A DNA stretch of 3,492 bases from a virus (taxonomy: Duplodnaviria > Heunggongvirae > Uroviricota > Caudoviricetes). Both the position numbers and the translations under genes were made by a program. This document shows positions 1-3,492 of the stretch, piece after piece. Under the pieces are notes generated by a model. It made no database searches. It was not told the origin of the DNA and saw only the letters and a list, made by a program, of their open reading frames with translations. Position 1 is the stretch's first letter; every line of letters starts with the position of its first letter. Location of the stretch: the IMG/VR virus record IMGVR_UViG_2737471838_000002. One strand, given 5' to 3'.

Positions 1-112
1 AACTGAAGTTGCCCTGAAAATGAAATTTTTTTGCACAACCGCAGAACTTTTCCGCAGGGCATCAGTCTTAATTAGTGCCACTGCTTTTCTTTGATGTCCC
101 CATTTTGTGGAG

Positions 113-155
113 CCCATCAACCCCGCCATTTCGGTTCAAGGTTGATGGGTTTTTT
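113..155 (+). terminator. Putative rho-independent terminator: perfect 10-bp inverted repeat followed by a T6 run
   Basis: Seen in sequence: CCCATCAACC (113-122) pairs perfectly with GGTTGATGGG (140-149), 6 G:C pairs, with a 17-nt loop, followed directly by TTTTTT (150-155). The T-run is on the + strand only, so it would stop transcription entering from the left. An open frame (frame 2, positions 2-100) ends at TGA 98-100 just upstream, consistent with the 3' end of a + strand gene. The loop is longer than typical, which lowers confidence. Confidence 0.45.
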
Positions 156-235
156 GTTGCCTGAAATTTAAGATGTTTAAAATCATGATGTTAGAAGCAC
201 TGTTTTTTAACGATGGCGACAAAATGGCGGCAGCG

Positions 236-1512: not shown

Positions 1513-2082
1513 ATGAATTTGGAGAAAGGCGGACGAGGCGCTATAGAGCGCATGGTAGAAGCTTATGGATTCAAGACTCGACAGGCGTTGTGCGATCATT
1601 TAGGAATCTCTAAAAGTACACTCGCCACACGCTACATGCGTGACTCATTCCCAGCAGAATGGGTAATCCAGTGCGCCCTTGAAACAGGCACCTCGCTTAA
1701 TTGGCTCACAACCGGGCATGGTTCAAAGCAAACTTCAGGTAATACAAATACTATGGAAGTTGCTAAATATGTATTATCTGATGGGGCCTTGTGTGAAGAC
1801 GGTTTTTATATTTTCGATAGAGAATTTCTACCGTCGGCATTCAAGAATCTTTTTGTAATCACAGATAATAATTCTGAATTTATTTGTGATAAGGAATTTG
1901 ATGATATACGTGATGGTAAATGGGTAATAAGTATTGATGGCGAAATAACGATCCGTGACATTACTCGTTTACCCGGTGGAAGAATCTTCGTCGAGGGTGG
2001 AAACAGAGCCTTCGAGTGCAAGATAGAAGATGTTGAAATAATTGGGAAAATTATAAGTTTAACAATTAAGTACGTTAGGTAA
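1513..2082 (+). CDS. cI: Phage 186 CI-like immunity repressor (Phage_CI_repr N-terminal HTH domain plus C-terminal domain), 189 aa
   Basis: The N-terminal ~70 aa (AIERMVEAYGFKTRQALCDHLGISKSTLATRYMRDSFPAEWVIQCALETGTSLNWLTTGHG) match the 186 CI-type helix-turn-helix domain pattern I recall (AYGF ... LxxRYxR ... CALETG ... WLxTG). Length is close to 186 CI (about 192 aa). It is divergent from the apl-like gene and upstream of int, as in 186. Start moved from the track's GTG at 1507 to ATG at 1513, with GGAG at 1504-1507, 5 nt upstream. Confidence 0.8.
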   Translation: MNLEKGGRGAIERMVEAYGFKTRQALCDHLGISKSTLATRYMRDSFPAEWVIQCALETGTSLNWLTTGHGSKQTSGNTNTMEVAKYVLSDGALCEDGFYIFDREFLPSAFKNLFVITDNNSEFICDKEFDDIRDGKWVISIDGEITIRDITRLPGGRIFVEGGNRAFECKIEDVEIIGKIISLTIKYVR

Positions 2083-2097
2083 TACCGGGAGGAAACT

Positions 2098-2289
2098 ATG
2101 CTTGGTAAGGTATTTTTTGTGGTTTTATCATGCTCTTTGTTATTAAACCCACTAACTACCTATGCTAAAAATTATCCTTGTTCTGGGAAAAAGGGAGGTG
2201 TCTCTCACTGTACCTCCGATGGAAAGTTCGTTTGCAATGATGGAACTATTAGTAAATCAAAAAAAATCTGTACTAAAAACTCGCGATAA
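2098..2289 (+). CDS. Small hypothetical secreted protein: predicted Sec signal peptide plus ~40-aa lysine-rich mature peptide with 4 Cys
   Basis: There is a strong Shine-Dalgarno GGGAGG at 2087-2092, 5 nt before the ATG at 2098, and only 15 nt separate it from the repressor stop, so it is probably co-transcribed. The N-terminus [23 protein letters not shown] has the n-, h- and c-regions of a signal peptide, with a likely cleavage after TYA. The mature part [40 protein letters not shown] is cationic with four Cys. The coding region is AT-rich. No confident family is recognised. Confidence 0.5.
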
Positions 2290-2475: not shown

Positions 2476-3492
2476 ATGGCAGTACGAAAACTCACCACAG
2501 GAAAATGGCTTTGCGAATGTTACCCCGCCGGACGTAGTGGACGTCGTGTGCGTAAACAATTCGCCACCAAAGGCGAAGCTCTGGCTTTTGAGCGTCACAC
2601 GATGGAAGAAACCGAAGCAAAGCCCTGGCTGGGCGAATCAGTGGATCGTCGGACATTGAAAGACGTGATTGAGCTATGGTTCAAACTACATGGTAAATCT
2701 CTGACAGCTGGACAGCATGTCTATGACAAACTGCTGTTGATGGTTGACGCTCTGGGCAATCCCCTTGCAACTGATCTAACCTCTAAAATGTTTGCCCACT
2801 ATCGAGATAAACGCCTGACAGGTGAGATCTACTTCAGCGAGAAATGGAAGAAAGGAGCAAGCCCGGTCACCATTAACCTGGAGCAAAGCTATCTAAGTAG
2901 TGTTTTTAGCGAACTATCCCGCCTGGGCGAATGGTCGTATCCGAACCCACTGGAGAACATGCGAAAATTCACCATCGCAGAAAAAGAGATGGCATGGCTT
3001 ACCCATGAGCAGATTGTTGAACTGCTGGCTGATTGCAAACGTCAGGACCCAATTCTGGCACTGGTAGTCAAGATATGCCTAAGCACAGGCGCACGCTGGC
3101 GAGAAGCAATAAATCTTACCCGCTCGCAAGTGACCAAATACCGAATTACCTTTGTAAGAACGAAGGGGAAGAAAAACAGAAGCATCCCTATCAGTAAAGA
3201 GCTTTACGAAGAGATCATGGCGCTTGATGGGTTCAATTTCTTTACAGACTGCTATTTTCAATTTTTATCCGTGATGGAAAAAACGTCTATCGTGCTCCCT
3301 CGCGGTCAACTGACACACGTTCTGCGCCATACGTTTGCGGCGCACTTCATGATGTCGGGTGGAAATATCCTTGCTTTGCAAAAAATCTTCGGACATCACG
3401 ATATAAAAATGACTATGCGCTATGCCCATTTAGCACCCGATCATCTTGAGACGGCTCTGAGATTCAACCCCCTCGCAACGCTAGAAGTGTGA
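2476..3492 (+). CDS. int: P2/186-type tyrosine recombinase (phage integrase), 338 aa, complete
   Basis: The N-terminus MAVRKLTTGKWLCECYPAGRSGRRVRKQFATKGEALAFE parallels the P2 Int N-terminus as I recall it (MAIKKLDDGRYEV...GRNGKRIRRKF...EAVAFE). The C-terminal catalytic region has LSTGARWREA, HVLRHTFAAHFMMSGGNILALQKIFGH and MTMRYAHLAPDHL, which supply the Arg, His-x-x-Arg and Tyr residues of the tyrosine-recombinase active site. Start set at ATG 2476 (GGAGGG Shine-Dalgarno 7 nt upstream) rather than the track's ATG at 2398, because the 26-aa extension has no counterpart in P2 Int. The stop TGA is at 3490-3492. Confidence 0.93.
   Translation: MAVRKLTTGKWLCECYPAGRSGRRVRKQFATKGEALAFERHTMEETEAKPWLGESVDRRTLKDVIELWFKLHGKSLTAGQHVYDKLLLMVDALGNPLATDLTSKMFAHYRDKRLTGEIYFSEKWKKGASPVTINLEQSYLSSVFSELSRLGEWSYPNPLENMRKFTIAEKEMAWLTHEQIVELLADCKRQDPILALVVKICLSTGARWREAINLTRSQVTKYRITFVRTKGKKNRSIPISKELYEEIMALDGFNFFTDCYFQFLSVMEKTSIVLPRGQLTHVLRHTFAAHFMMSGGNILALQKIFGHHDIKMTMRYAHLAPDHLETALRFNPLATLEV

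Follow-up and report, generated by a model that had tools for sequence, protein, structure and literature searches.

An AT-rich block between the repressor DNA-binding domain and the integrase gene of a 186-like Escherichia coli prophage remnant, probably the accessory end of the lysogenic operon

Morons and repressor-linked lysogenic conversion genes include the lambda genes cI-rexA-rexB, and classical morons carry a promoter and a terminator of their own. In coliphage 186, the stop codon of the repressor gene cI abuts the start of the integrase gene int without any cargo between them, and a proven flanking operator (FL) is located inside the repressor gene, at +269 of cI. For the K139-like, P2-related phages of Vibrio, a defence hotspot between cI and int has been described (Rousset et al. 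2022, PMC9122126). The record of K139 gives the order cI-orf2-glo-int, with Glo annotated as a periplasmic protein for phage exclusion, an annotation likewise found in PMC4870250. The corresponding interval was analysed here in a stretch of 3,492 nucleotides (nt) from a virus of the Caudoviricetes (IMG/VR virus record IMGVR_UViG_2737471838_000002), referred to as the window. In this window, an AT-rich block covers the second half of a 186-type immunity repressor gene, cI (1513-2082, + strand, 189 amino acids (aa)), and a downstream gene for a YdcA-family peptide of 63 aa (2098-2289, + strand). The block is probably the accessory, weakly constrained 3′ part of the pL/pE lysogenic operon of a 186-like prophage, consisting of the C-terminal domain (CTD) of the repressor, a cargo gene and a spacer.

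The gene order of the window, cII-apl/cI-int, is that of 186. Divergent apl and cII genes stand opposite face-to-face promoters, as expected for the 186 type; a pR-like promoter was present on the minus strand (1488-1460) and pL was not located among the promoter-like sites of the window. CI matched the 186 CI structures (PDB 2FJR, E = 4e-31; 2FKD, the CTD wheel, E = 3e-14; both matched by the CTD over CI residues 83-183) and shows the same collinear two-domain architecture at 31–32% identity. The N-terminal domain (NTD) contains a helix-turn-helix (HTH) at residues 9-72 (nt 1537-1728; PF07022, 114.5 bits, cut-off 22) and is followed by a linker (about residues 73-82) and by the oligomerisation domain (residues 83 to at least 181, from nt 1759; PF16452, 93.8 bits, profile positions 2-100 of 101). 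An earlier reading of the window, made from the sequence alone and without database searches (the sequence-only reading), had named CI, the 63-aa open reading frame (ORF), int and cII correctly, as the two CI domains and the YdcA family match confirm. Three differences with 186 stand out: 393 nt are inserted between cI and int, the int gene is preceded by a conserved leader of 60 nt with a hairpin that 186 does not have, and the CTD of 186 is only mildly AT-shifted (G+C content (GC) of 0.43 versus 0.47). Among the CI homologues, several proteins of about 300 aa (P0009, P0010, P0014, P0016, P0020, P0023, P0045 and others) carry an extra N-terminal extension of 105–125 aa before the HTH, and in P0019 and P0028 the HTH comes first, with an insert ahead of the CTD.

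Composition and limits of the AT-rich block

GC was 0.350 within positions 1741-2289 compared to 0.458 in the remainder of the window (z = 4.7). Per feature, it amounted to 0.496 for the NTD-coding part of cI (1513-1740), 0.342 for the CTD-coding part (1741-2082, + strand), 0.349 for the small ORF, 0.376 for positions 2290-2475, 0.477 for int and 0.503 for cII. Codon and amino-acid composition were measured as GC at the three codon positions (GC1/2/3) and as FYMINK/GARP residue fractions. All codon positions fall, from 0.51/0.51/0.46 in the NTD to 0.43/0.33/0.28 in the CTD, and the amino-acid make-up shifts to AT-coded residues, with a FYMINK fraction of 0.37 in the CTD versus 0.21 in the NTD.

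A maximum-likelihood segmentation with two change points set the edges at 1721 and 2477, delimiting an AT-rich block (1721-2476) that reaches from the CI linker as far as the start codon of int, with a GC of 0.356 inside and 0.465 outside. The scan statistic was matched by 0, 1 and 0 of 300 shuffles with blocks of 10, 30 and 60 nt, respectively. GC profile, segmentation and shuffles thus bear out the AT-rich stretch reported by the sequence-only reading. The left edge had been drawn accurately at about 1741, coinciding with the CI linker, and composition indeed returns to normal in int. The right edge, placed at 2289 or about 2300, was some 190 nt too early, as GC stays low across the spacer as far as the int ATG at 2476. 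Based on homology, the border of the variable region lies at about 2415.

RNA or regulatory elements were rejected as the source of the AT-richness: an Rfam scan of the window found RybB alone, outside the block, promoter-like and terminator-like sites in the block were no commoner than in shuffles, and no tandem repeats were noted in it, the direct repeats being short two-copy matches.

A survey was made of 48 family loci, mostly one per species. The GC of the NTD exceeded that of the CTD in 46 of them, with a mean difference of 0.093. In the 31 species-level loci that carry cargo between cI and int, CTD GC ranged from 0.284 to 0.429, and the 0.342 of the window is the 12th lowest value. An AT-rich CTD is common to all close relatives and to most of the clade, and does not have the distribution of an islet from a low-GC donor. 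The proposal that low GC marks a recently exchanged CTD was largely overturned by these CTDs, which are collinear and, in 46 of the 48 loci, richer in AT than the NTD. Typical CTDs of this clade are thus largely as AT-rich as that of the window, but not the CTD of 186 proper (0.43). The age of a transfer cannot be read from the low GC of the CTD.

The interval between cI and int

Similarity of the window to the phage database was lost between positions 1401 and 2416. In at least 16 loci with unrelated cargo, homology resumed at 2413-2417, which sets the right border of the variable region at a constant place some 60 nt ahead of int. The slot ends in a non-coding AT-rich spacer (2290-2415), with the conserved int leader (2416-2475, + strand) as its right anchor. 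This leader contains a TTGACA −35-like hexamer (2423-2428), an ACTG...CAGT inverted repeat and a hairpin (2446-2474; GCYCTC-loop-GAGGGC, ΔG −17.5 kcal/mol), followed by six T residues running into the int ATG; the Shine-Dalgarno sequence of int, GGAGG, is part of the 3′ arm of this hairpin. The leader was kept in 16 loci with different cargo, with compensatory changes in one stem pair, and is lacking in 186. By its sequence, the hairpin looks like a terminator or a translation-blocking element that would separate cI and the cargo from int.

Where cargo is present, it measures 0.4–3.3 kb with a GC of 0.30–0.41. Its ORFs are always on the cI strand and start 2–68 nt past the cI stop codon, and they are therefore presumably co-transcribed with cI. 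In some related loci, the slot contains the YdcA gene alone, and in L005, L007, L010 and L140 this gene is joined by a KAP NTPase/PDC-S20 (569 bits). Other loci hold PD-Lambda-1 (L024, 393 bits), an OLD/AriA-like protein (an ATPase; L043), PDC-M11A/B (L011), HEC-01A (L031, 500 bits) or PDC-M18A (L030), while in phage 186 the slot is empty. Variable content between conserved core genes, with recognised anti-phage systems in related loci, is what characterises a hotspot. The part of the sequence-only reading that concerned horizontally acquired cargo was upheld, since the cI-int interval holds acquired genes and 186 has none there. A BRCT-domain protein adjoins cI both in K139, as orf2 (L142, 2194-3099), and in a Hafnia prophage (L017, 4574-6507), where it precedes a KAP NTPase; this recurrence hints at a shared two-gene cargo.

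The K139-like phages share with this locus the placement of cargo between cI and int, and the periplasmic protein Glo of K139, annotated as involved in exclusion, occupies the same slot. They differ in host clade, which is the Enterobacterales here, and in CI subfamily. A tblastn search of the phage collection with the YdcA peptide listed no Vibrio phage, and no direct comparison with Glo was made. The feature is considered an ordinary repressor-linked cargo slot in a P2-related prophage and not a one-off recent import.

In the proposed operon, the stretch from the cI stop codon to the conserved 60-nt leader would serve as the cargo slot, and the cargo would be transcribed together with cI from pL/pE in the lysogen, as its orientation, its spacing and the lack of a detected intervening terminator or promoter suggest. 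The low GC would then have two sources. Cargo and spacer would bring the AT-rich composition usual for morons. The CTD, which appears to tolerate far more amino-acid change than the HTH, would have drifted clade-wide to AT-rich codons and residues, its low GC resulting from weak protein constraint under AT-biased change in a gene pool shared across hosts.

Several points weigh against this interpretation. The case for co-transcription comes from orientation and spacing and from the fact that neither a terminator nor a promoter was detected between the genes. The YdcA gene was present in just 8 of the 48 loci of the survey, and the YdcA-like protein of the window itself matched no PADLOC defence model at E ≤ 1e-5. 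The NTD-CTD gap in GC was larger in loci with cargo (0.102) than where cI abuts int, 186 included (0.046; Mann-Whitney p = 8e-4), but phylogeny confounds this association of cargo with an AT-rich CTD, because all loci without cargo are distant relatives that belong with 186 proper. Drift is also insufficient to account for the gap in GC3, 0.28 in the CTD versus 0.46 in the NTD, with both halves saturated across the clade.

In view of this gap, some selection at the DNA level is conceivable, and as a secondary reading the AT-rich synonymous sites of the CTD may be selected for silencing or for cassette exchange. Low GC could in this way serve H-NS damping of cargo and int in the lysogen, provide flexible DNA that the CI 14-mer could wrap or loop between pR and a flanking operator, or allow Rho-dependent suppression of antisense transcription. 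The persistence of low CTD GC3 across lineages with saturated synonymous sites speaks in its favour, as do a strong G>C skew of 0.3–0.39 across 1750-2100 and a putative operator exactly at the left edge of the block. This operator is an inverted repeat, TCAGGTAATACAAAT-N17-ATATGTATTATCTGA, at 1735-1781 in the cI linker. The motif TWTGTATTWYSTGA occurs four times versus 0.42 expected, with one copy in the pR operator region (1438-1451), and the inverted pair inside cI is about 310 bp away from the pR site, as in 186. Of four diverged relatives with the same immunity, three (L007, L011 and L013, not L010) have a match to the motif at +222 (two mismatches). Based on these sequence features, 1735-1781 is a candidate CI flanking operator, analogous to FL of 186. 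However, the NTD-coding stretch between pR and the candidate operator is not AT-rich, the CTD of 186 has a GC of 0.43 despite the proven FL site, and the frequency of promoter and terminator motifs in the block does not exceed that of shuffles. Selection for low GC at the DNA level is thus regarded as an unlikely explanation of the block.

Recombination junctions in and around cI

Many CI proteins of Citrobacter, Kosakonia, Salmonella and Enterobacter were 88–97% identical to that of the window in the NTD and 45–57% in the CTD. In one set of E. coli CI proteins, identity was 81–83% in the NTD and 87–89% in the CTD. Compared to the Citrobacter, Kosakonia and Salmonella relatives, nonsynonymous divergence (dN) was 0.01–0.04 in the NTD and 0.35 in the CTD, and synonymous divergence (dS) was saturated in both halves. 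A domain swap as the origin of the contrast in these three genera (96% versus 54% identity) was rejected because of this saturation; together with the unequal dN, it attributes the identity gap to unequal constraint and not to exchange.

Among close E. coli relatives of the same immunity, dS was 0.02–0.06 in the NTD and 0.14–0.38 in the CTD at a dN/dS of about 0.1. This five- to sevenfold difference in synonymous divergence between the domains indicates that the two halves of cI have different histories. Relatives of the L004/L121 type show the reverse, with a dS of 1.05–1.7 in the NTD and about 0.4 in the CTD. In these, apl is 78% identical, the operators are unalignable and the NTD is 80% identical, whereas cII, CTD, ydcA and int are 90–97% identical. 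This distribution points to a swap of an immunity-specificity module (1131-1670), comprising apl (1166-1387, − strand), the pR/pL operators (1388-1512) and the NTD, which was replaced as a unit.

At the informative sites of a triplet comparison, the window sided with L063 from 1700 to 1999 (23 sites, none with L091) and with L091 from 2000 to 2399 (35 sites, none with L063), marking a sharp breakpoint at about 2000, inside the CTD. A divergent patch of 15 sites at 1800-1899 is common to L091 and L121. Junctions in the E. coli population lie near 1130, 1670-1800, 1900, 2000 and 2400. These patterns indicate that cI is a recombination mosaic, the junctions of which do not delimit the AT-rich block as one unit. 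The stretch 2000-2400, with the end of the CTD, ydcA and the spacer, does act as one recombination unit; of cI, no more than about 80 nt at the 3′ end belong to it. The position of the breakpoint gives the greater part of the CTD a different history from that of the small ORF.

According to the sequence-only reading, a single horizontally acquired segment of low GC replaced the C-terminal half of cI and brought in the small ORF, the DNA-binding domain staying in place. The sharp compositional edge at the domain linker fits such an event, as do the loss of phage-database similarity from 1401 to 2416, the different dS of NTD and CTD in close relatives and the joint behaviour of 2000-2400. Of this proposal, the mosaic nature of the repressor holds, on dS and triplet sites, and low GC as the mark of an exchanged CTD does not, as AT-rich CTDs are the rule of the clade (46 of 48 loci). 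A joint arrival of CTD and small ORF is contradicted as well. Relatives of the L091 type have an identical ydcA (100%) with a CTD of 93.6% identity, those of the L063 type a CTD of 97.3% with a ydcA of 93.2%, the breakpoint at about 2000 parts the two, and across species identical cargo is found beside CTDs of only 30–42% identity. With breakpoints at about 1800-1900 and about 2000 and with discordant CTD and ydcA, the block is not the contiguous unit of a recent low-GC islet. The clearest swapped unit is the apl-operators-NTD module, not the CTD. Separate nearest relatives of the CTD, suggested as a check, were not found: a tblastn search with the CTD alone returned the phages of the whole protein (813R9 and KP12), and discordant nearest phages for the CTD were rejected at that depth of comparison. 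Also rejected was a CTD travelling with the cargo cassette, as the sharing of cargo tracks CTD identity no better than NTD or Int identity. Import of the block as one segment is, all in all, quite improbable.

An ordinary local fluctuation of base composition without meaning has next to no probability. GC does fall to about 0.40 in other parts of this short window (at about 1100-1300 and 350-550), but no more than 1 of 300 block shuffles attained the scan statistic, and dozens of independent loci show the pattern at the homologous position.

The YdcA-family peptide and the prophage remnant

The cargo of the accessory operon end is the YdcA-family gene. The peptide matched NCBIfam NF007463 (116.1 bits, cut-off 93) as well as phrog_6000, and PF27300 in a precomputed annotation. 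It shares with the family (NF007463/PRK10040, PF27300, phrog_6000) a signal peptide followed by a conserved cysteine motif. The ORF starts 15 nt past the cI stop codon, with a Shine-Dalgarno sequence GGGAGG at 2087-2092. A signal peptide was predicted at residues 1-23, with likely cleavage between TYA and KNYPC, leaving a mature peptide of about 40 aa with four cysteines, of which C28, C38 and C46 are invariant in the family alignment and C58 is nearly so. The mature peptide is 89–95% identical even where CI is 31–41% and Int 48% identical (Yersinia, L138). Signal peptides diverge freely; the mature part has a dN of 0.012–0.031 with saturated dS, which indicates a real gene under strong purifying selection.

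Prophages of Escherichia, Klebsiella, Kosakonia, Citrobacter and Yersinia and the Haemophilus phages HP2 and S2 carry the gene as the next one after cI. In HP2 (L014), the YdcA ORF is unannotated (2489-2683, − strand; 83 bits with the hidden Markov model) and lies immediately 3′ of cI, and S2 is alike. The HP2 ORF is followed by orf1(S), with a weak match to a Sie-like PHROG, and then by int. Phages of Moraxella and Acinetobacter carry a YdcA-family gene elsewhere in the genome. In a single strain, E. coli MB50 (L006), the gene is split by ISKpn13 (IS5-like; 3196-4560), which shows that it can be lost while the prophage stays.

Like morons and lambda cI-rexA-rexB, ydcA is an extra AT-rich gene that is present in some relatives and placed for expression from the prophage. 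Other relatives have no gene or different cargo at the site, and its GC is 0.349 versus 0.477 for int and 0.496 for the cI NTD. It differs from morons in that no promoter or terminator of its own was detected around the ORF. No sigma-70-like site was found upstream of 2098, the only one nearby being inside the ORF (2102-2131), and the first terminator-like hairpin on the + strand is the one at 2446-2474 in the int leader. The gene looks like a passenger of the cI transcript.

Nothing relevant to the function of YdcA was found in the literature. A weak, repeated match was obtained between the peptide and lobe 1 of Dis2 (Lpg0823) of the Legionella Dot/Icm system (sequence E = 3e-5, profile E = 8e-5), and Dis2 was the top Foldseek hit (probability 0.96, E = 0.14) of an AlphaFold model of the peptide with a mean pLDDT of 78. 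Dis2 is a disulfide-rich subunit of the type IV secretion system cap near the outer membrane (PMC8486379), for which its authors reported no structural relatives (PDB 7MUC chain AN; PMC8486379). It differs in having two lobes and five disulfides and in belonging to a secretion machine not present here. This resemblance is a lead only, too weak for transfer of function. Longer members of the YdcA family (P0176-P0182) have a second cysteine-rich lobe.

By analogy with K139 Glo, the peptide might be a periplasmic or envelope factor made by the lysogen, for example for superinfection exclusion, a suggestion that is tentative at best. Somewhat more doubtful is a specific version, by which the peptide would accompany the repressor as its conserved partner, would be related to a Dis2 lobe and, after export to the periplasm or outer membrane, would block superinfecting phages or another machine for DNA uptake or secretion.

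The window as a whole is a remnant, about 3.3 kb long, of a 186-like (Peduoviridae) E. coli prophage. Over all 3,492 bases, it is 100% identical to a chromosomal segment of E. coli ZYB62 that lies between ybjL/rybB and rcdA. Positions 1-144 are host DNA, found in 5,423 of 5,426 complete E. coli genomes, the RybB small RNA is present in full length at 80-158 (+ strand; Rfam RF00110, 105 bits), and phage-derived similarity begins at about 145. By these matches, the prophage is inserted at the 3′ end of rybB. Given phage similarity from about 145, the attachment core shares sequence with the 3′ end of rybB and its terminator, and the small RNA gene receives its final bases from the phage. The remaining genes are an ogr/B-type zinc-finger gene (236-487, − strand), a 3′ fragment of tail gene D (545-673, − strand), cII (651-1139, − strand; PF06892), apl (phrog_575) and int, a tyrosine integrase gene (2476-3492, + strand). 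The gene D fragment is fused onto the 3′ end of cII, from which a deletion of about 25–30 kb of replication and structural genes is deduced; the remnant keeps the whole switch, int and the YdcA gene. E. coli B REL606 carries an intact prophage with the identical cI-ydcA-int arrangement, and an effector of the retron St85 family is located nearby. Of the 5,426 genomes, 602 contained at least 80% of the stretch from cI to int.

For the evolution of these prophages, the locus illustrates that a compositional step at a domain boundary need not date a transfer, as the step is clade-wide here and the true junctions lie elsewhere. The cI-int defence hotspot of the K139-like Vibrio phages also operates in enterobacterial 186-like prophages. 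Survival of a 3.3-kb remnant with only the switch, int and the peptide gene suggests that these genes are retained for the benefit of the host. The most interesting thread left to follow is the highly conserved YdcA peptide. Its widespread family (phrog_6000) gains a testable context as a strongly conserved secreted peptide encoded just downstream of the repressor, also in the laboratory strains E. coli B, BL21 and C. A role in blocking at the envelope, if true, would explain both the near-frozen mature sequence and the recurrence of the gene after cI from Escherichia to Yersinia and Haemophilus.

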